DNA of 64,000 bases from positions 44,950,001 to 45,014,000 of the forward strand of contig OZ024747.1 of NCBI GenBank assembly GCA_964016885.1, given 5' to 3'. Positions 14,062 through 55,382 of the stretch are shown here, in pieces. The notes under the pieces were generated by a model. It was not told where the DNA came from. It saw nothing but the letters and a program-made list of their open reading frames with translations, and ran no database searches. The stretch is from Eledone cirrhosa. Lineage: Eukaryota. Position 1 is the first letter of the stretch; every line of letters begins with the position of its first letter. A program made the translations under genes and the position numbers.

Positions 14062-14170
<109 letters not shown>

Positions 14171-14181
14171 TATATATATAT

Positions 14182-17100
14182 GTATGCTGTGTGCAAGAGA
14201 CTAGATGGAGAGGAGGGTCTGCTAGAGTCCTTGTAGGAAAAAGCCAGTGCTACAAATTTTTCTGGGTGGGAAATGACGATGGGATGGGTGGTGTAGGTAT
14301 ACTATTAGCTGACAAGTGGGTAGATAAAGTAATCTCAGTGTACAGGGTAAATGCAAGAATCATTAAACTCAGACTAGTCCTGAATAAGACAATTACCACA
14401 ATAATATCAGCTTACGCACCCCAATCGGGGCTGCCAGACGAACTTAAGGATAGGTTTTACGAGTCCCTAATACACACTACTGCTCTAACAGACGACAAGG
14501 ACTTCCTAATCATTGCAGGAGATTTTAACGGACACGTAGGTAAACACTGCGACGGCTTCAATAGAGTACATGGAGGCCATGGAGTTGGCACAAGGAATGA
14601 GGAAGGATTCAGACTTCTAGAATTCTGCGACGCCAATGACATGTCGATATGTAACACAAACTTTAAAAAACCCGACAACCACCTGATCACCTATAGATCA
14701 GGGGAGCACTCTAGTCAGTTAGATTTTATCCTCATCAGAGGACGTGACAGATGGACGGTCGTAAACACAAAAGCCTTCCCTAGTGAGGAATGTACATCCC
14801 AACATAGCTTAGTTGTCAGCGACCTCACGGTCAGAACTAGACGAGCCCTGAAACAGAGGCCAACCTGGAGAAGAAAGATCTGGAAGCTGAAAGTCCCCTC
14901 AACCAGTAACAGATTTAAAGATATTTTACTCAACGCCTACGACAGTAAAGAAGAACAGATAGAGACATTTAACGTAGAAGAGAACTGGGAGTTCCTAAAA
15001 AATAACTTACTAGAGGCGACGGATGAGGTTTGTGGCTGGAGTAAGACCTCAAGCAGGAGGAGAGTGACTTGGTGGTGGAACAATAAGGTAGATGAAGCAG
15101 TCAAGGCCAAGAGACAGGCATGGAAAGAATGGAAGAACGGGGGGAGCAGGGTACATTACATAGAGACCAAGAGGGAAGCTAGGCGACAAGTATACTTAGC
15201 TAGGAGGGAAGCAGAGGATAGAAAATTCAAGCATGTTTTACAACGTGAGGACCAGAAACAGGAGGTATTCAAGATTGCGAGGCAGTGTGTCAGAGATAGT
15301 TGTGATGTCATTGGAGAGAAGTGTATCCGGAATGATAAAGGTGAGCTTGCCCTCACAAGTGCTGAGAAGAAAGATGCATGGAAGAGTCATTATGATAGAT
15401 TACTAAATGAGGAGAATGCATGGGAAGAAGAGACTCTACCCCACGTAGACCCTATAGAGGGACCAGCAGTACAAGTCAGCGGCAGCGTAGTAAGTAAGGC
15501 AATCAGAGATATGAAGATAGGGAAGGCAACCGGTCCATCGGGTATAGCTGCCGAGATGCTGAAGGCATCTGGGTCTGTAGGTCACACTATAACCACACGT
15601 ATCGTTAACCAGGTAATACTAGAGGGGGCCATACCAAAAGATTGGTGCAGTAGCATCATTGTCAACTGCTACAAAGGTAAAGGCGATGCACTAGATAGAG
15701 GAAACTATAGAGGTATAAAGTTGATGGACCAGGTCATGAAAGTAACAGAAAGAGTTATAGCACAGCTGATTAGGGACCGGGTGACTATAGACGAGATGCA
15801 ATTTGGGTTTGTACCAGGGAAAGGCACCACTGATGCCCTCTTCCTTGTGAGGCAATTACAGGAAAAGTACCTAGCTAAAAGTAAGCCACTCTACTTGGCA
15901 TTTGTCGACCTTGAGAAAGCCTTTGACAGAGTTCCACGTGCAGTAATCTGGTGGGCTCTTAGAAAACTAGGAGTAGATGAATGGCTTGTGAAAGCGGTAC
16001 AAGCCATGTATAGGGGAGCAGTCAGCAAAGTTAGGATTGGCAATGAGTATAGCGAGGAATTTAGCGTACAGGTTGGGGTCCACCAGGGCTCTGTTCTTAG
16101 CCCTCTCCTGTTCATCATAGTCCTGCAGGCAATAACGGAGGAGTTTAAGACCGGATGCCCATGGGAACTCCTGTATGCTGATGACCTCGCACTCATAGCT
16201 GAATCTATGGTAGAACTAGAGAATAAATTCCAAACCTGGAAGCAGGGACTAGAGAGAAAGGGCCTCAAAGTCAACATGACAAAGACTAAGGTCCTTATAA
16301 GTAGACGAGAAAACAGAACCCAGATCCCCTCAGGGAAATGGCCTTGCTCAGTATGTAGGAAAGGTGTAGGTAGGAACTCCATTCTCTGCCCCAAATGCAA
16401 ACAATGGGTACACAAGAGATGTAGCGGGATCTCAGGAAGCTTAATTAAGAATGTAGGATTCACATGCAGCAGCTGTGCTGAAACAGCAAGCAAACAGCCA
16501 CAGGAAACAAGTACCACCAATCTCTGGGAGGGCCCTGTAGAAACAGTAGACAGCTTCTGCTACCTAGGTGACCGAATTAGCAACGGAGGTGGGTGCTCAG
16601 AAAGTACAATAACTAGGGTAAGAACGGGATGGAAGAAGTTTAGGGAACTACTACCACTGCTAGCTGCAAAAGGCTTCTCCCTCAGAATGAAAGGCAGACT
16701 GTATGATGCGTGTATCCGAACAGCGATGTTGCATGGTAGTGAGACCTGGGCGCTGAAGGTGGAAGACTTACGTAGATTAGAGAGAAACGAAGCCTGCATG
16801 CTCCGATGGATGTGTAACAGTAATATACGTGAACGACAAAGCATAAAGGAATTGAGAGAGAGACTGAGTATAAGAGGAATCAAATGCTGCGTGCAGGAGA
16901 GGCGGTTACGCTGGTATGGACATGTGATGCGTATGAAGGATGACAGCTGCATAAAAAGGTGCAGAGCACTAGAAATTGATGGAAACCGCGGAGTGGGGAG
17001 ACCCAAGATGACTTGGGATGAGGTGATAAAAGCCGACTTTACCCAACTACACCTCTCAAAGTCAATGACACACGACCGTGACTTCTGGCATCACGCAGTA

Positions 17101-17438
17101 ATACAGGGTACCCGACCTCCCATGGGTACATGCTGAAGCATATAAACAATATGCCCCCCCCCCCCCACCGCAAGGTGGTCGTGGAGGTGCCACGGCAAAA
17201 AAGCACCCAGCCCACACTGTAAAGTGGACGTGTAGGCGCCACGAAAAAGCACCCAGCACTCACTGTAAATGAGGTTGGTGTTAGGAAGGGCATCCAGCTG
17301 TAGAAATCAAGCCAGATCAGTTCCTGTATGAGCAAGGCATGGTCAGCCGACCAGACACTGCCCACAACAGGACAACCCGTCTAACCCATGCTAGCGTGGA
17401 AGAACGGACGTAAAACGGTGATGATCATGATGATGATG

Positions 17439-29060: not shown

Positions 29061-29329
29061 AAGTATTTCATTATTTGGAGGTTTTATCATTTACTTATAT
29101 TTCTCATGTATCCAATATCACGACAGGCTCATCACCAGGCTGTTACTAGTGGAGAGGGGTATCAAGCCTGAAGTGTGGTCTGTTGGTAGAAGTGTATTTT
29201 CTCACATTAAAATTAGCTCACACATTTAGAAATGAAGGAGAGGACAACAAACAATTTTGCGGAATGGTGGGGGTGGGGGTGAGGGGCAGGGCACCACAGC
29301 CCCACTCTCCACCATGGCAATTGGACTGT

Positions 29330-29545
29330 ATCATCATCATCATTTTATGTCCGCTTTTCCCTGCTTGCAAGGGTGGCACGGGTCTTATTCAGAACAGCAT
29401 CTCTCCATTTGTCACGGTCCTTCGTCATCTCCACTGTGAGCTTCAGCAATCTGAGGTCAGCTCTTACCACCTCCGCCCATATTTTTCATGGTCTTCCTTC
29501 CACTGGGATTTCTTGGCACTTCTTCACCCAGCTGTCATCAAGCAA
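29330..29545 (-). mobile_element. RTE family B 3' end fragment, inverted relative to the adjacent long copy
   Basis: It is the reverse complement of ~31720-31950, including CCCACCCTTGCAAGCAGGGAAAAGCGG and (GAT)n. Confidence 0.9.
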
Positions 29546-29569
29546 TCGCATAACAAGAAAAAAAACAAG

Positions 29570-31958
29570 AATATGAAGATGTCGCATCTCAGAGTTGCCA
29601 CACTTAATGTTAGCACTCCTAGAGGTAGATCTGGTGAAATAGTGGAGATGCTGGAGAGAAGGCATGTGGATGTGTGCAGCATGCAAGAGGTGAGATGGAG
29701 AGGTGCCTCTGCAAGACTAATCGCAGGCAAACATCTCAGTTATAAGCTTTTCTGGGTGGGTAATCATGATGGGTTAGATGGAGTAGGCATTTTACTGGCT
29801 GAGAGATGGATTGATAAGACAATAGAGGTAGTTCGAGTTAGTAATAGAATAATTAAGCTTAGATTAGTTTTAGGAAAGAGACTAGTGACAATCATCTCTG
29901 CCTATTCTCTCCAGGCCGGCCTAGGTAAAGAAAAGAAAGACTGCTTTTACGAGCAACTTTTACAAACAGCTGCAATGACAAGGGACTTCAATGTTGATGT
30001 TGGACAGCTCCAGGATGGTTACACTGGGGTACATGGTGGGCACGGTTACAGCTCAAGAAATGGAGTGAGGCTTCTTGAATTTTGTGATGCAAGTGCACTA
30101 ACCATTTGCAACACTAACTTCCAGAAGCCTACCAATCACCTAATATCCTACAAATCAGGTGAGCCAGATTGACTTCTTGCTAGTTAGGCAGCGAGACAGA
30201 CAGCTGGTGTCAAATACCAAGGCATACGCCGGGGAAGAATGTACCCCACAGCATAGGTTAGTCGTTAGCAACATCTCAGTAAGCAAGAGATGGAATGAGA
30301 CATACAGGAAGGTGTGGAAAATAAAGGTCTGAAAAGACCTCTCACTAAAATACAAATTTAGGAAAGCCCTTCAATATGTGCATGATGAAAAAGAAGACGA
30401 TTTTGAGTTCTATGACATAGATGATAACTGGAATTTCTTACGTGACAACTTACTGCAGGCTACTGAAGAAATTTGTGGCTGGAGCAGAGCTGATGGATCA
30501 GGTTATGAAAGTGGTAGAAAGGATATTAGCGCAACTAATTAGTGAAAGGGTCAAACTAGATGAGATGCAGTTTGGTTTTGTGCCTGGGAAAAGTACAACA
30601 GATGCCTTCTTCTTAGTGAGACAACTACAGGAGAGGTTCTTAGAGAAGAATAAGCCACTATACTTAGCTTTTGTTGACCTAGAGAAGGCCTTTGATAGGG
30701 TACCCTGATCTGTCATCTGGTGGTCCCTAAGCAAACTAGGTGTTGAGGAATGGCTTGTGAGGACAGTCCAAGCTTTGTACAGAGGTGCTGAGGTGCTGTC
30801 AGTAAAGTGAGGGTAGGAATAGAGTTTAGTGAGGAATTCCAGATACAAGTAGGAGTACATCAGGGTTCGGTCCTCAACCCACTCTTGTTCATTATAGTCC
30901 TCCAAGCCATAACAGAGGAGTTTAAGACTGGCTGTCCATGGGAACTTCTCTATGCTGACGATCTGATTCTTATAGCAGAATCATTAGAGGAGCTAGAGAA
31001 TAAATTTTGGTTATGGAAACAGCAGTTGGAATTAAGAGGACTGAGAGTGAACCTAGCTAAGACAAAAGTGTTGATGAGTAGAAAAGAGGACAAAACTCTG
31101 ATTCCGTCAGGAAAATGGCCATGTTCGATATGCAGAAAAGGAACTGGCATAAATTCTATAAAATGTACACAATGCAGATCTTGGGTACACAAGAGATGAA
31201 GTGGGATAGCAGGCAAACTAACAGCTAGAGAAAACTATGTATGCAGTAGATGTACAGGGAAATTTGACAGTAGAAGTCGCATTGATAGACACATTTTTCA
31301 AATGCAGATGGGTCCTATAGAAGTGGTTGATAGCTTCCAGTACCTAGGTGATCAGATTAGCATGGGAGGGGGGGGGGTTCCAAGGCCATAGTATCTAGAA
31401 TAAGGATGGGTTGGAAGAAGTTTAGGGAGCTGCTTCCTCTGCTGGTGAAGAAGGGTTTCTCCCTGCATACGAAAGGCCGGTTATATGATGCCTGTGTGAG
31501 ATGTGTGATGCTACATGGTAGTGAGACATGGGCAGCAACTGCAGAGGATATGCGACGGCTGGAGAGAAATGAGGCAATCATGCTCCGTTGGATGTGCAAT
31601 GTCAATGTGCGTGAACGACCCAGCATGGATGTTTTGAGAGAGAAACTGTGTCTGAGAGGGATAAATTGTAGTGTGCGGGAGAGGAGACTGCGATGGTAGG
31701 GACATGTAACGTGCATGGAGGATGACCGATGGGTGAAGAAGTGCCAAGAAATGCCAGTTGAAGGAAGACATAGTAGAGGAAGACCACATAAAACATGGGC
31801 GGAGGTGGTGAGAGCAGACCTCAGATCACGGAAACTTACGGTGGAGATGACGAAGGACCGTGACAAGTGGAGAGATGTTGTGCTGAATAAGACCCGTCCC
31901 ACCCTTGCAAGCAGGGAAAAGCGGAAGTATGATGATGATGATGATGATGATGATGATC
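29570..31958 (+). pseudogene. RTE family B LINE: intact N-terminus, internal deletion, multiple stops and frameshifts
   Basis: MSHLRVATLNVS...[38 protein letters not shown] and a (GAT)n tail. The sequence jumps from ICGWS directly to LMDQVMK near 30490. Confidence 0.92.
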
Positions 31959-32578: not shown

Positions 32579-32621
32579 TATAAGTATTAATAAAATAGAT
32601 GTTCTTTTGATCAATTACATT

Positions 32622-32672
32622 TCATTATACATATTTCGGATGTACAACAGTACGTCCTCATCAGAAAAAATA
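32622..32672 (-). ncRNA. Minimal type I hammerhead motif, copy 1
   Basis: CUGAUGA-GGAcGUAC uguu GUACaUCC-GAAA-UAUGUA-UA/AUGA. Stem I is weak. Confidence 0.65.
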
Positions 32673-32730
32673 TATTAATACATGACATACCCTGAGATAT
32701 TAAATGGTTAAGATTTAATCAATCTACCTT

Positions 32731-32781
32731 TCATTATAGATATTTCGGATGTACAACAGTACGTCCTCATCAGACAATATA
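32731..32781 (-). ncRNA. Minimal type I hammerhead motif, copy 2
   Basis: Same core and stem II as copy 1, offset by 109 bp. Stem III reads UAUCUAUA. Confidence 0.6.
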
Positions 32782-33007
32782 TAATGATACATGACATACC
32801 CTGAGATATTAAATGGTTAAGATTTTAATCAATCTACCTTGATTAAATATGTATAATAAAATGTAATTGATCAAAAGAACATCTATTTTATTAATACTTA
32901 TATTTTAATATTAATAACTCCTGAAAATTATTTCAGTTGAGTGCTTCCAATCTACTGTAAAACTCATTCTTTGACATAATCATCGAATATTGTTTAACAA
33001 CTTATTA

Positions 33008-34714: not shown

Positions 34715-35280
34715 GGGGAGTTCAGGCCGGGGGAGTGTGGGTCTGTAGGGTGAAGATGGTTCGTTGTTCGACCCTGAGGAGAGTGGCGGGTGTTCCGTGG
34801 CATTGGAGTAGACCACAGACTGTGAGGTGGTGTGCGGAATGTCCAGGGGCACCAAAGTGGCGGGCAATGGGGGAACTACCACCGAGACGAATATCTCGGA
34901 GGTGTTCAGTAAACCGGTCCGCCAAGCAACGTCCAGTCTGTTCGACGTAGGTTGCGCTGCACGGAGTGCAGCGAAGTCCGTAGACTAGGTTGGACGAGGT
35001 GCAGCGGAAGGTATGCCAGACAGAGAGAGAGTGGCCGTTGGGACCCTAGAAGGTGGTGGTGTTGGTGATGTGGGGACAGGTGTTGCAGCGGGGCCTGGAA
35101 CAGGGAAGGGAACCGGTGGGGGGGGCGTGGGAGGGGGGAGCTGTGGACGAGGATGGTGCGGAGATTGCGTGCGCGTTTGAAGGAGGTGGGGCTGGGAAGA
35201 TGTGGGAGGTGGAGGGGTCGGACTGGAGGCGTCGGAAGAGGAGGAGGATGGTGCGATGGAGAGGTATGGTGGAGGGATAT
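34715..35280 (-). pseudogene. PLE linker, Cys-rich finger and GIY-YIG endonuclease
   Basis: FRRLQSDPSTSHIFPAPP...PCSRPRCNTCPHI...(TAG at 35046-35048)...FRCTSSNLVYGLRCTPCSATYVEQTGRCLADRFTEHLRDI...PIARHF...EQRTIFTLQT. Confidence 0.88.
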
Positions 35281-35378: not shown

Positions 35379-35743
35379 AACCAAAGATTAATATGGTTCG
35401 TTGATTAATCAACAAATACAATTTTACAATAGATTAGAAGCACTCGACAAGATTTTCCTGGAGTATTTAATATTATTCAAAATGTTAATAAATGAAAAAT
35501 ATTCTCATAATCAAAATATATATTTTATTATACATATTTCAAAGGTACAATGGTGTTTAAGTATGTTTTCATCAGACTGCCAATACTGGAATTGAATAAT
35601 AAAAACCGTAGCGGTATGTCACATATCAAATCTTATATTTTGTCTGATGAAAACGTACTTAAACACCATTGTACGTTTGAAATATGTATAATAAAATATA
35701 TATTTTGATTATGAGAATATTTTTCATTTATTAACGTTTTGAA

Positions 35744-38555: not shown

Positions 38556-40340
38556 ATCATCATCATCATCATCATCATCACCGTTTTACGTCCGTTCTTC
38601 CATGCTAGCATGGGTTAGACGGGTTATCCTGTTGCGGGCAATGTCTGGTCGGCTGACCATGCCTTGCTCATACAGGAACTGATTTTGGCTTGATTTCTAC
38701 AGCTGGATGTCCTTCCTGACACCAACCTCATTTACAGTGAGTGCTGGGTGCTTTTTTCCGTGGTGCCTACACGTCCACTTTACAGTGTGGGCTGGGTGCT
38801 TTTTTGTCGTGACAACTCCACAACCACCTTGTAGTGGGAGGGTGTGGGGGCATATTGTCTATATGCTTCAGCTTGTACCCATGGGAGGTCGGGTACTCTG
38901 TATAACTGCGTGACGCCAGAGTTCACGGTCATGTATCATCACCTTTGAGAGGTGCAACTGGGTAAGGTTGGCCCCTATCACCTCATCCCAGGTTTTCTTG
39001 GGTCTCCCCACTCCGCGGTTTCCATCGACTTCTACTGCTCTGCACCTTTTTATGCAGCTGTCATCCTTCATATGCATCACATGTCCATACCAATGCAATA
39101 TCCTCTCCTGCACACAGCATTTGATTCCTCTTATGCTCAGTCTCTCTCTCAATTCATTCATGCTTTGTCGTTCGCCTATATTACTATTACACATCCATCG
39201 GAGCATGCAGGCTTCGTTTCTTTCTAATCTACTTAAGTCTTCCATCTTCAGCGCCCAGGTCTCACTACCATGTAACATTGATGTTCGGATACACGCATCA
39301 TACAGTCTGCCTTTCATTTTTAGGGAGAAGCCTTTTGCAGCTAGCAGTAGCAGTAGTTCCCTGAACTTCTTCCATCCCGTTCTTATCCTAGTTATTTACT
39401 TTCTGAACACCCACCTCCACTGCTAATTCGGTCACCTAGGTAGCAGAAGCTGCCTACTGTTTCTACAGAGCCCTCCCAGAGATTGGTGGTACTTGTTTCC
39501 TGTGGCTGCTTGCTGCTTGCTGACTCAGCACAGCTGCTACATGTTAAGCCTACATTCTTAATTAAGCTTCCTGAGATTCCGCTACATCTCTTGTGTACCC
39601 ATTGTTTGCATTTGGGGCAGAGAATGGAGTTCCTACCTACACCTTTCCTACATACTGAGCAAGGCCATTTCCCTGGGGGGATCTGGGTTCAGTTTTCTCA
39701 TCTACTTACAAGGACCTTAGTCTTTGTCATGTTGACTTTGAGACCCTTTCTTTCTAGTCCCTGCTTCCAAGTTTGGAATTTCTTCTCTAGTTCTACCATA
39801 GATTCAGCTATAAGTGTGAGGTCATCTGCATACAGGAGGTCCCATGGGCATCCGGTCTTAAACTCCTCCGTTATTGCCTGCAGGACTATGATGAACAGGA
39901 GGGGGCTAAGAACAGAGCCCTGGTGGACCCCAACCTGTACGCTAAATTCCTCGCTATAATCATTGCTAATCCTAACTTTGCTGACTGCTCCCCTATACAT
40001 GGCTTGTACAGCTTTCACAAGCCATTCATCTACTCCTAGTTTTCTAAGAGCCCACCAGATTATAGCACGGGGAACTCTGTCAAAGGCTTTCTCAAGATCA
40101 ACGAATGCCAGGTAGAGCCGCTTACTTTTAGCTAGGTACTTTTCCTGTAACTGCCTCACAAGGAAGAGGGCATCAGTGGTGCCTCTTCCTGGTACAAACC
40201 CAAATTGCATCTCATTTAGTTTCACCCGGTCCCTAATCAATTGTGTTATAACTCTTTCTTTTACTTTCATGACCTGGTCCATCAGCTTCATACCTCTATA
40301 GTTTCCTCTATCGAGTGCATCACCTTTACCTTTGTAACAT
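38556..40340 (-). pseudogene. 5'-truncated RTE family A copy with frameshifts
   Basis: Highly similar to 15665-17440. ORFs 39698-40372 (YADD) and 38868-39317 belong to it. Confidence 0.95.
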
Positions 40341-41619
40341 ATATACACACACACATTAGATGGTATGTACATATAACAATATACACAGACCTATCCATGC
40401 TTCTAGAAACACGTACAAATAGAGGAAACATATAAACATATAGATAGAACTGTATTAATATACACACCTATATATATTTCAAAATAGGTGAGAAGAAATT
40501 ATGCACAAAGTAATTAGCAGAAAAATCCTCATCATTTAATGTCCATTTTCCCAGCTAGCAATGGCTGGAAGAGTCATCACACATCAATTCCATACTCAAC
40601 TGGTGACTCAGATCTTGCTTACATATAATCCTGTACTTTACACAGTGCACCATGAAATTTACAATGACACCAGCACTATGGAGGTCATCATATCTTTAAC
40701 ACAGCCGAAGCACCCTCTATATACTTTGCAGGCTCAAGACTGATATGGGGGCTAAACAAAAATAAAACTTCTACTTTAACATCAACTAGAATATAAACAA
40801 CATCTTCATCGTCAGTAAATTTGTCGATATGAGACTCTAGACAGTTGCTTGACTTGCTAGAAATAGAAATGAAACCAAGCCTAAATCACAATTTACCATC
40901 ATAAAATAGTAAAGCCATGTTAAACAATGTAGTTCTGAGTCCCCCAAAATATGATGCAATGGTCATCATTTGAGCATAAATCTAATGGTCAATGTTGATC
41001 CAGGACTAAACAACAACATCAACAAAAATAACATACAAAACATCATTATGAAATACAGATCAAGAAAATATTGCATTACATTTCTTGTGTATCTTATCTG
41101 AATATCTATCTAAATAAATTTGCTGCCAAATAATATATTTTAAAAGATTTTTCACACCACTTTACCTATTGATTTAAGTGCATTTTTATTTAAATGTAAG
41201 CAGAACATAGCACTCCACCCTAATAATGATTCAGACTTTTGAGATTTTAAAAGATATATCAACCCTTACATTACCATATTTCTAATGAAATACACTGCCT
41301 GTCTTTCAATTAATTTTGAAAATAAATAAACATATGGAAGAATTTAATAAAATAACTAAGTTTTTCATAAGTAGGCTGCTGTTTAAACATTATTTAAGTA
41401 AAATTTCTAAAATAAAATCAAGATGAAATGTTTTAATAGAAAGATAAACATTTTAAAATAAGCAGTTTTGTATCACAAGTAACAAAAGTACTGAATTTTG
41501 TTAGGTAGAGTGGAATAACTATATTACTTCAAAGCTGAATCTTCATAAGCTATTACTTCCATTCAGTCTCTGTTTCCATTCTTCAGGAGATTATGTATGT
41601 ATATATAATATATATATAT

Positions 41620-42577
41620 ATCATCATCATCATCATCATCATCAGGTTTAGCGTCCGTGTTCCACGCTTGCATGGGTTTGGACGGGGGTTTTCCCACTTG
41701 AGGCAAGAGTGGTTGTCTTGCTCGCATAGGACTGTCTGGCGGGTTTTCTACAGTTGGATGCCCTTCCTAACACCAACCACATTTACAGTGTGGGGCTGGG
41801 AGGTTTTTACCGTGTTGCCTACACGGCCACATTACAGCGTGGACTGTCTGGCGGGTTTTCTACAGCTGGATGCCATTCCTAACACCAACCACATTTACAG
41901 TGTGGGGCTGGGAGGTTTTTACCGTGTTGTCTACACGGCCATATTTACAGCGTGGACTGTGTGTTTTTTTTGTCGTGACACCTACACGATCTCATTTGTT
42001 TCGGCCTGGATGTTGTGGGACCAACATAACTTTACATTGAAAGGGGCGGTGTGGATGGGGTGGAGGTGGTGGGACGGGGGTGTGTTTTGATAGAGATGCC
42101 TACTGACTGTAGTAGGTTTTTACTTTGTATTTAGGTAAGGCGGGTCTTCTCTATTACTGAGTACCGCCAAAGGTCTCGGTCCAGTGACATTGTCTTGGAG
42201 AGGTGTAAGCGTGTGAGGTCGGAATTTATCAGCTCGTCCCATGTTTTTCTGGGTCTGCCTACTCCGTGGCTACCGTCTATCTTTATTGCCCTGCACTTTG
42301 TTATACAGCTGTCGTCTTTCATGCGCATCACGTGACCGTACCAACGTAGCCTTCTCTCGAGTAAACAACATCTGATCCCTCTTATTTCTAATTTTTTCCT
42401 TAGTTCGTTTATGCTTTGCCGTTCACGTATATTACTATTGCACATCCAGCGGAGCATGCAAGCTTCGTTCCTCTCTAGTCTGCGTATATCCTCTGCACAC
42501 AATGCCCAGGTCTCACTGCCATGCAGCATTGCTGTTCGTATGCAGGCATCGTATAACCTGCCTTTCATTTTTATATA

Positions 42578-42608
<31 letters not shown>

Positions 42609-47502: not shown

Positions 47503-47964
47503 CATATCAACTAGAAATTGATTGACATATATATATATATATAAAATAAACATATGAAACAATCTCAGGGAATAATTTGTAAAAGTGTGTAAGCACACAT
47601 AGCTATGTAGGTAACTTATTAAAGTTTAACTAGAACTTTAAAAATGGATACTTTATAAATTGATTAATCTTCCTTGTATATATTTCATTAAAGAAATATA
47701 TTTCACCATTAATCGATCGGTAAACCACAGTAGCCAAGTCCCGGATTTTCAACAAGGGAGAAGATCTAACTATCTGAGTTTACACAGCAAATTTAAATCT
47801 ACAAATGACTAACAGCACGTCTTACAGTTTTTAAAAATACACACATCGTACCAGCTTCATCCCAGTGGCGTGAATAGGATTATCGACAACTAGAAATAGC
47901 AGCCAAGTCCTTTCAACTGAGTTAGCTCTACAATTAAGGGATCGTGTATATATCCAAAATTATA

Positions 47965-48037
47965 TTAAGAGTGTCTTGTCAGAGAGACATGCGCCATATC
48001 CACCGTAGAATATGTCTCTCTGACATGACACCCTTAA
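47965..48037. repeat. Short inverted repeat with TTAA ends (possible Kolobok-type micro-MITE)
   Basis: TTAAGAGTGTCTTGTCAGAGAGACAT pairs with ATGTCTCTCTGACATGACACCCTTAA. Confidence 0.6.
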
Positions 48038-48756
48038 GTTCATTTTGGATATATATATACATATATATTTATCATCACCATCATCACCATTTTACATTTA
48101 TTTTCCCTGTTTACATAGGTTAAGTTGCCATGTTCTGAAACTAGACAAGTCAGATGACTATGTCTTGCTTATATGTTCCATTTTGGCATGGTTTCTATGG
48201 CTGGAGGCCCTTTTTAATGCCAACCATTTCATGGCATATACCATCTGACACACACACAAACAAACACAGACACACACAAACAAACACACACACACATATA
48301 TATATATATGGAAAACAGTTTTTCCTTTATATTTTGTTATTAAAGAGGCAGCTATTTCAAGTTCCAATTTCTTTATTAAAACTTTCTCATAATTTCCTAA
48401 GTCCATAATTTAATCAACGTTTCCAGACCTTTACTTTCTCATCATCAAGAGTATTTTTGGTTTATTTTTACTGCCTCTTTTCGTGAAGTTTAATTCAGTT
48501 CTTACTTTGCTACCTTTCTATGGCTTTCTTTCCTGTGAGTGTCTGGAAGCATTAATTAAATTATGGTCTTAGGAACTTTGTCATTCTAAATGAACTGTAG
48601 AGGCCTTATTAGACAATGTTCTAATAAGAGAAACCAAAACTTGTCATATATATAAAAACCTGGCATTTCGAGCCACTTTTTCCCATAAAAAACAGAATTA
48701 ACATTCAAAGACCAACCAGATGTGAGAAAAACCACAGACCCTCCATCTCAATTCTA

Positions 48757-48792
48757 CTTTTGAAAAGCAGAAGAACTGTGAAACCGGTAAAG
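48757..48792 (+). ncRNA. Minimal hammerhead variant with a U3-A8 core
   Basis: CUU-UUGAAAA-GCAG aagaa CUGU-GAAA-CCGG-UA/AAG, with a palindromic ACCGGU stem III. Confidence 0.5.
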
Positions 48793-49052
48793 CAACCAAA
48801 TAAATATATATATTTAAAAAAAAAAAGACTCCAGTGGCATTTTCGATTTTACTTTTTTCCTTATACTTTCACTCGTGTAGGACATCTTGGTTATTTTTCA
48901 TTTTGTTAAAAAAAACCTCACTTTCTAATATATATATATATATATATGAATGTATGTATAGTATATTTGGCAATATACCGTATGTTTAATTAAAAACATT
49001 TTCAAGACCTTGCGCTATCATTTTAAAGTAGTGACTATGTCACTTACTTCTT

Positions 49053-49143
49053 TTTTCGGCAAAGGAAGGGAGAGAAGCTGACAGATTCTGTTTCACACTG
49101 CTGGTGTTCCTCAGAGCAACGTACTCCCCGCCTTTGCCGAAAA
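49053..49143 (-). ncRNA. Full-size type I hammerhead ribozyme
   Basis: UUUUCGGCAAAGG-C-GGGGAG-UAC-GUUGCU-CUGAGGA-ACAC cagca GUGU-GAAA-CAG aau CUG-UC/AGCUUC-U-CUCCCU-U-CCUUUGCCGAAAA. The core is complete, all three stems form, and the GUC site is at 49080. Confidence 0.88.
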
Positions 49144-49223
49144 TTATAGAGGCTGGATTATTATAGAATTCCAGTAATAATCAGGAACTGATTATACAGA
49201 GCGATTGACGGTCCAGCAAAAAT

Positions 49224-49365
49224 CTTCCTACTTTTCAAATGAAAGTAGTGAAAAATAGTGTATTAGTGATATTGTTTAAATAAGTTGTACTATTAACAAT
49301 TCTGCTTACATATTACTAAGTAGCTTTCCACTATTTTTCCCTACTTTCATTTGAAAAGTAGAAAG
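49224..49365. repeat. Inverted repeat with 37 bp arms
   Basis: CTTCCTACTTTTCAAATGAAAGTAGTGAAAAATAGTG pairs with CACTATTTTTCCCTACTTTCATTTGAAAAGTAGAAAG. Confidence 0.85.
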
Positions 49366-54500: not shown

Positions 54501-54803
54501 AAATTATATTTTATATCATTATATTCTTTTGTTACTTTTTTTTATTGTAGAATTTTTATTTGTTCATTTTATTTGTGTATGTGTGTCTGCATGATTTTGT
54601 TGTTGCTGTATCAATATTTAAGAAATATCTATGAGTTAAATTGAATAAACAATGATGTGTGTATTGAGTTAGAATTTGTTGCTATAGAGCACATAAAATT
54701 TTATAGTTTGTACGCAGGTAAATATATATATATATATATAAATATATATATATAAAATAATTAAGTCAAATATTTAAAATTTGGCTTCGTTTATTAAAGA
54801 TAT

Positions 54804-54858
54804 ACTGCTATATATATTTCGGTGACAGCCATCATTGGCTGTGTCCTCTTCAGGCAGT
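54804..54858 (-). ncRNA. Minimal type I hammerhead (left arm)
   Basis: ACUGC-CUGAAGA-GGacACAGCC aaugau GGCUGUcaCC-GAAA-UAUAUA-UA/GCAGU. Confidence 0.8.
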
Positions 54859-55190
54859 CCGAATTGGTGTGGTAGAGATGGGTACACATGTTGTTGAATT
54901 GTTTTACTCCGTCAATGCTCTGATATGTCCAGCTCCTGGTTGGCTTGTTATTTCTCTGAGGAACTGGAATCATATGAATTCGAACAAATGAATTTCGGCG
55001 TCATAGGACACTCTCTCCTCCAATTGGTCAGTTGTGAGAATGTTCCTAACCGAAATTCGTTTGTCGAATTCATATGATTCCAGTTCCTCAGAGAAATAAC
55101 AACCCAACCAGGAGCTGGACATATCGATGTATTGACGGAGTAAAACACACTTCAACAACATGTTTACTTGTCTTTCCTACACCAATTCGG

Positions 55191-55245
55191 ACTGCCTGAA
55201 GAGGTCACAGCCAATGAAGGTTGTCACCGAAATATATATAGCAGT
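55191..55245 (+). ncRNA. Minimal type I hammerhead (right arm)
   Basis: ACUGC-CUGAAGA-GGUcACAGCC aaugaa GGUUGUcACC-GAAA-UAUAUA-UA/GCAGU, with cleavage predicted after 55240. Confidence 0.85.
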
Positions 55246-55382
55246 ATATCTTTAATAAACGAAGCCAAATTTTAAATATTTGACTTAATTATTTTACATT
55301 ACTCCGGAGTAAACAAACCAACCTACATAGTTCGCCAAGTGCTCCATTCTGCATACTGAGGTATCGATAAACAACCAACATA

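Follow-up and report, generated by a model that had tools for sequence, protein, structure and literature searches.

A hammerhead ribozyme in Eledone cirrhosa lies in a truncated copy of a dispersed retrozyme-like repeat with PLE-type insertion ends

The hammerhead ribozyme on the minus strand of this 64,000-nt stretch of Eledone cirrhosa DNA (the window) very probably lies in a truncated copy of a non-LTR retrozyme, likely copied by an endonuclease-bearing Penelope-like element (PLE) into a (TA)n microsatellite and likely from an RNA circle made by the ribozyme itself. To judge from its sequence, the repeat represents a new non-LTR retrozyme family, with about 3,000 dispersed, non-coding segments in the 3.0-Gb genome searched. 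The flagged locus itself is ordinary, and its value lies in the family as a test system.

The ribozyme (49053..49143, minus strand) was characterized by sequence, folding, and comparison of 140 copies, and has the conserved core, three-helix junction, and open helix I of a type I hammerhead, with an extended stem I and full architecture. The catalytic core C3-A9, CUGAGGA (49108..49114, minus strand), the GAAA, and the GUC with C17 at 49080 are all intact, and self-cleavage is predicted after the GUC, between 49080 and 49079, as the earlier note had proposed. Each invariant core letter is retained in 134 to 140 of the 140 copies, 119 of which come from ribozyme-selected loci; N7 is G or U by subfamily, and it and loop III vary freely. 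Stems II and III have 4 bp each, A15.1-U16.1 being included in the latter, and stem III has a loop of 3 nt, all as first described. Loop II (49099..49103, minus strand) is CAGCA, a rare variant with G at 49101 that occurs in 2/140 hammerheads; CAACA is found in 136/140, and an older subfamily has CAACCA. The description of stem I stands for its 6-position proximal helix with two U-U mismatches and the 6 bp that follow (one of them G-U), but the UAC that had been called a bulge (49121..49123, minus strand) lies opposite a single U, in a 3x1 internal loop, and the perfect 13-bp closing helix, with all 13 positions complementary here, has one pair that is G-U in most copies and has A in 19 of 126. 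The UAC letters are each retained in 126 to 135 of the 140 copies, and we predict that they form a tertiary contact with loop II.

Folding of the 91-mer yields -40.1 kcal/mol (z -4.7), a value that none of 200 shuffled sequences equals. In ViennaRNA, whose energies leave out the core and the loop-loop (tertiary) contacts, the predicted minimum is not the active hammerhead but a fold in which stem III pairs with the 5′ side of the core; the forced active fold lies 4.1 kcal/mol higher, and in 5/5 copies tested it is 2–4 kcal/mol above the rival pairing. Hammerhead identity and an SM-alpha-like full architecture are supported by the core, helices, and loops, and the further suggestion that the ribozyme cleaves as a monomer is plausible from its sequence. 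A UAC internal loop and a C/A-rich loop II are the loop letters of Schistosoma SM-alpha and the amniote intronic HH9. The window ribozyme resembles both in its 6-position helix I, 3x1 UAC loop, 4-bp helix II, and C/A-rich loop, but where they have G-C it has A10.1-U11.1, which in some copies is U-U, and its stem III is stable and non-palindromic. An Rfam scan, proposed earlier as a check, matched none of the hammerhead models (Hammerhead_1, HH9, or HH10) at the gathering threshold or at E up to 10. In contrast to HH9, the ribozyme is multicopy and neutrally decaying. Helices of 6 bp and 4 bp are described for canonical animal hammerheads (PMC4209133).

Far from standing alone outside any transposable element, as had been supposed, the hammerhead has flanks that are common to its genomic copies and define a 318-nt repeat, within a truncated arm of which it sits. 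Searching the genome with the 91-mer gave 40 full-length matches at 95–100%, itself included, these being the 40 scored of 1,320 candidates. The exact 25-nt core pattern has 198 matches and an intact-core pattern tolerant of subfamilies 351; for a 23-mer lying downstream of the ribozyme there are 3,168 at ≤2 mismatches, and the reversed controls have 0. The monomer, defined from a natural dimer, is 318 nt long with 36% GC, and sequence past the ribozyme repeats the sequence before it. Coding capacity is absent, judged by the sequence and length of the unit, and a circular monomer is predicted to be self-paired (-71.5 kcal/mol, z -4.4). As in retrozymes, the unit falls within 150–450 nt, is low in GC, and has one canonical type I hammerhead and no LTR.

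Repeat alignment shows the window copy to be a lone 5′-truncated arm of 277 bp (48947..49223, minus strand), about 0.87 of a monomer, whose 5′ end is at monomer +175 and whose 3′ end is at about +134 from the cleavage site, a position that we call site A. It has neither the second 3′-end position, site B, nor the ~34-nt tail, and its 48947..49027 segment (minus strand) is part of a ~116-nt 3′ module, ending at site A, that is common to a sister family. The arm departs from the family's majority letter in 5/261 columns (1.9%) and is the single copy of its family in the window, as the earlier note had stated. With a single arm and a single ribozyme it has no way to release a monomer; it is most likely a dead-on-arrival passenger, and cutting a read-through transcript of the minus strand is the most that its ribozyme could do. 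The target microsatellite at the 3′ end of the arm, (TA)n at 48929..48946, also borders a plus-strand PLE pLTR fragment, tail to tail, and a ~140-bp imperfect inverted repeat (MITE-like; 49222-49365) abuts the arm's 5′ end.

Copies decay neutrally after insertion, core included: in a set that was not ribozyme-selected, 23/406 core positions (5.7%) and 662/12,755 background positions (5.2%) are mutated. Divergence within insertions spans 0.4% to 16%, with a median of 6.6%, and we therefore conclude that the family has been active over a long period. Among the 140 ribozyme copies, two double changes support the helices, a stem I G-C to U-A between subfamilies (6 loci) and a stem II A-U to G-C (3 loci, with 7 among the first 100 intact-core matches listed), together with two repairs of stem I U-U, to A-U at 11 loci and to G-U at 6. 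These compensatory changes, few as the independent events are, point to selection on the source elements.

Insertions were mapped at 130 loci (90 ribozyme-selected and 40 selected by the downstream 23-mer), which together have 222 arms; 11 of 141 loci had been removed as duplicates before counting. The 3′ ends of the arms lie at site A (107), at site B (92), or elsewhere (23); counted from the cut, the two sites are at about +134 and +168, ~34 nt apart. Most 3′ ends run into (TA)n, and 124/222 pass a strict test of the 12 letters beyond the alignment, which often had already consumed part of the run. The arms form 76 head-to-head inverted pairs, and where both ends could be classed (n = 58), 54 are A+B, two A+A, and two B+B (p about 1e-12); median arm lengths are 259 and 320 nt. 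This is the anatomy of PLE-type insertions, with 5′ truncation, partial tandems, an inverted 5′ arm, a ~34-nt tail at one end, and an AT-rich target. A tail of 30–40 nt on one end only is described for PLEs (Craig 2021, PMC8557442; Arkhipova 2013, PMC3846280), and according to Frangieh 2024 (PMC11167929) its length is the spacing of two internal sites at which a PLE protein, nicking and extending each strand of AT-rich DNA, starts reverse transcription. In the contigs of three public runs, which derive from one sample, look like genomic contigs, and are possibly not independent of the assembly, both sites again have loose ends in (TA)n, and strand-switch joints are present too, so an assembly artefact is an unlikely source of the two-ended anatomy.

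The 5′ ends show no preference for the cleavage site: 6/222 arms end within ~5 nt of it, with ~7.7 expected. The cut is crossed at least once by 165/222 arms and twice by 11/222, and by 39/72 in the set that was not ribozyme-selected. Since the 5′ ends are distributed over the whole monomer and arms cross the cut, a cleaved linear monomer is not the usual template. Arms extend up to 2.5 monomers, the longest being a trimer of 807 nt. A two-ribozyme pattern gave 60 genome matches, 49 of them from the family once 11 unrelated ones were dropped, namely 47 dimers and one trimer; the 48 loci with two hammerheads have the tandem arrangement of retrozymes. No array longer than the trimer was found by the exact dimer pattern, which could miss arrays, as the assembly could collapse them.

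None of the 62 free 5′ ends has a transduced flank or a common element-like 5′ flank, and a single pair of these flanks has another repeat in common, in opposite orientation. Inversion junctions are essentially unique, with four near-recurrences among 76, about the number that we estimate by chance. Rare variants are common to tandem units in 40/339 cases and to inverted arms in 84/876, with controls of 1.2% and 1.4%, such that sharing within one insertion is 7–10 times the controls, and subfamily sites are discordant 10 times between tandem units (44 expected) and 30 times between inverted arms (115 expected). After correction, no position-specific variant separates last from upstream units (smallest p 0.002, 134 columns). 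In one arm (L083), the two tandem ribozymes differ in stem I and in loop III length, which is not expected of a single circle unless a template switch or a later change intervened. Ends, junctions, arm lengths, and variant sharing favour an RNA-circle template, without proving it; gene conversion, or a single source locus that dominates, could also account for the shared variants.

A weak profile match led to a second retrozyme-like family with 316 candidates, represented by loci L227, L228, L231, and L232 (e.g., G000:C7:57485589-57486015). Its periods are 316–344 nt, it has two 3′ ends ~33 nt apart that run into (TA)n, and some copies have inverted arms. The ~116-nt 3′ module is common to both families (global alignment score 110, with 33 ± 8 for shuffles and 0/1,000 as high), and the commonest letter is identical in 75/118 columns; outside the module, the two monomers align weakly (9/500 shuffles as good). 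The sister hammerhead has U3 and A8 in 18/18 copies, a core known in schistosome PLEs (PMC4209133), and a 7-bp stem III, and its stem I pairs change from C-G to U-A (five) and from U-A to C-G (two). The conserved module spans both start sites A and B, and is likely the PLE recognition signal.

In search of a PLE partner, we examined ~40 loci from 10,596 candidates in a genome search for GIY-YIG, and twenty long-frame loci include young RT-CxxC-GIY-YIG open frames of 938 aa (L162 3809-6622, minus strand, at C1:145.87 Mb) and 1,096 aa (L164 1775-5062, plus strand, at C1:83.81 Mb). By the linker motif of Craig 2021 alone, these long frames appear to be Neptune- or Nematis-type. One young PLE family, the commonest tested, has 7,995 exact pLTR-pattern matches and makes inverted, two-ended (TA)n insertions; its two 3′ ends are 67 nt apart, and many 5′ ends gather ~215 nt upstream of the distal end. 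The pLTR fragment that meets the window arm tail to tail (48654-48929, plus strand) is a 5′-truncated end of this family, 89% identical to L162, and their adjacency is best read as reuse of one microsatellite. This abutting PLE is not supported as the retrozyme's partner, as its tail has no significant alignment with that of the retrozyme (375/500 shuffles as good) and is 67 nt long, not 34. No pLTR homologous to the 3′ module was found in the ~40 GIY-YIG loci and 30 pLTR loci (0.4 Mb of PLE-bearing sequence), and a two-family module profile run over 403,553 bases recovered retrozyme copies and one weak match (E 0.003). Among the flank matches listed, most of which are unrelated repeats, there is no clear retrozyme-PLE chimera. 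Two same-strand ribozymes 4.5 kb apart, considered as pLTRs around an ORF, proved to be a local duplication instead.

The window contains a variety of other elements. A motif scan identified four other minimal hammerhead-like motifs, and a fifth, a U3-A8 variant at ~48757-48793 inside the pLTR fragment, was recognized by eye. A palindromic ~550-bp element beside (TA)n (54750-55300), with arms 88% alike, carries back-to-back minimal type I hammerheads at 54853 (minus strand) and 55196 (plus strand) and is another PLE-type mini-insertion. Motifs with an AT-rich loop III lie at 35644 (plus strand) and 32773 (minus strand), the latter within a 109-bp two-copy tandem repeat (32605-32840). A LINE frame, which we take to be RTE-like, is open for 1,024 codons at 14062-17136 (plus strand) and has endonuclease, RT, and PHD finger matches in Pfam, with broken relatives at 29150-31699 and 38868-42607. 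A GIY-YIG-like fragment at 34722-35045 (minus strand) resembles a PLE endonuclease by eye and is below the Pfam reporting level. The GC-richer hairpin at 47955-48047, with ~30-bp arms and a weak score against plant microRNA models, is probably a small inverted repeat.

We envisage a cycle in which a copy with two hammerheads would be transcribed and both ribozymes would cut, freeing a 318-nt monomer that is then ligated into a circle; monomer release and circles have been reported for the coral, mussel, and axolotl retrozymes (PMC7229834). A PLE RT/GIY-YIG protein, an enzyme suggested by the findings in PMC11167929, would bind the ~116-nt module downstream of the ribozyme, both (TA)n strands would be nicked, and reverse transcription would start at the two internal sites ~34 nt apart, one per strand. 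The cDNAs would run back through the ribozyme, sometimes for more than one round, before ending at random points and being joined head to head, the outcome seen in the insertion anatomy, and the cycle would regenerate dimers. In its most specific form, which we put forward tentatively and with somewhat less than even confidence, this is a twin-primed rolling circle in which a PLE dimer starts two cDNAs 34 nt apart and the portable ~116-nt module suffices. Because two families keep the module with unlike hammerheads (C3-G8 and U3-A8), it may be all that a circle needs.

The same family and the same PLE enzyme could instead work on linear, uncleaved read-through RNA, with tandems made by template jumping and a ribozyme that serves in a different step or depends on a protein to act. 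We regard this as possible but rather unlikely, even though the assays of an Anolis PLE in Frangieh 2024 (PMC11167929) speak for it: unprocessed RNA dominates as the main substrate, ribozyme mutants insert normally, and the ribozyme is dispensable in vitro. In our family, the fold predicted as the minimum is another than the active one, the arms are short, and the L083 units are non-identical. Against a ribozyme-made circle stands also the report in Li 2026 (10.64898/2026.07.22.740005) of cleavage in only 1/9 Xenopus retrozyme dimers. However, linear transcripts of parents with one or two units should carry parental flanks, of which the 62 free 5′ ends show no transduction, and should pass on inversion junctions, none of which is inherited. 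Long arrays are also missing among the loci found, and compensatory changes maintain a full-architecture ribozyme in both families, yet it does not set the 5′ end.

Two further readings concern what the copies are. That they are 5′-truncated pLTR ends of an unsampled autonomous PLE would explain why their insertion anatomy matches that of PLE pLTR stumps, and would agree with the relation drawn between Xenopus retrozymes and PLE pLTRs in Li 2026; the ~40 GIY-YIG loci examined also leave most of the candidates for such an element. We nevertheless think this improbable: in every arm longer than a monomer (77/222), what lies upstream of a unit is another unit and not an RT plus GIY-YIG ORF between pLTRs, and the animal PLE ribozymes, both those seen here and those described in PMC4209133, are minimal, whereas that of the retrozyme is canonical. 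The earlier note had offered two origins for the ribozyme, a retrozyme remnant, which accords with our finding of one truncated copy of such a family, and a domesticated, possibly conserved one that acts on an intron or UTR of its host. The intact core and extended stem I of the window copy, and the isolated intronic and UTR hammerheads known in amniotes (PMC6155905), give the latter some appeal, but we consider it highly improbable. HH9-like domestication implies a single copy or low copy number under purifying selection, and we find instead hundreds to thousands of neutrally decaying copies whose core positions mutate at the background rate, an outcome that the earlier note itself had set against domestication; the window copy is one of these, close to the family majority, with shared element flanks and other TE fragments around it, and the ORF lists reveal no host gene nearby.

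A non-LTR retrozyme likely copied by a PLE from a circle thus remains our preferred reading, and the family shares with the animal retrozymes of coral, mussel, and axolotl (Cervera & de la Peña 2020, PMC7229834; Li 2026) a canonical type I hammerhead, a ~300-nt low-GC non-coding unit, dimers and partial tandems, a predicted circle that is self-paired, and coexistence with PLEs. In contrast to coral retrozymes, with up to 62-mers (PMC7229834), it is dispersed, with at most three ribozymes in a row; its insertion ends, inverted arms, and two-site tail are resolved, and, unlike the animal retrozymes of those papers, it is known from genomic sequence alone and shows no pLTR homology in the 0.4 Mb of PLE loci. 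With endonuclease-bearing PLEs and their non-autonomous derivatives (PMC3846280, PMC8557442, PMC11167929), it has in common 5′ truncation, partial tandems, an inverted 5′ copy, a 30–40-nt tail at one end, AT-rich or (TA)n targets, and two internal starts; it differs in having no ORF, a purely tandem monomer, a canonical rather than minimal ribozyme, and a cis module common to two families with unlike ribozymes.

PLEs have been proposed as mobilisers of retrozymes from their coexistence and pLTR relatedness (PMC7229834; Li 2026), mobilisation through RNA circles being a standing hypothesis in the discussion of PMC7229834 and its mechanism, according to Li 2026, remaining to be shown. The literature searched lists no cephalopod or octopus retrozyme and no end-mapping of retrozyme insertions. 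In the Eledone family, the RT start sites are mapped, natural dimers exist, and a short sequence is a candidate for the cis module; as the same genome also encodes young PLE proteins, the circle hypothesis is directly testable in the published in vitro PLE assay. If the twin-primed rolling-circle reading is true, the family would provide genomic evidence that animal retrozyme circles are true transposition intermediates, with the cis signal named.
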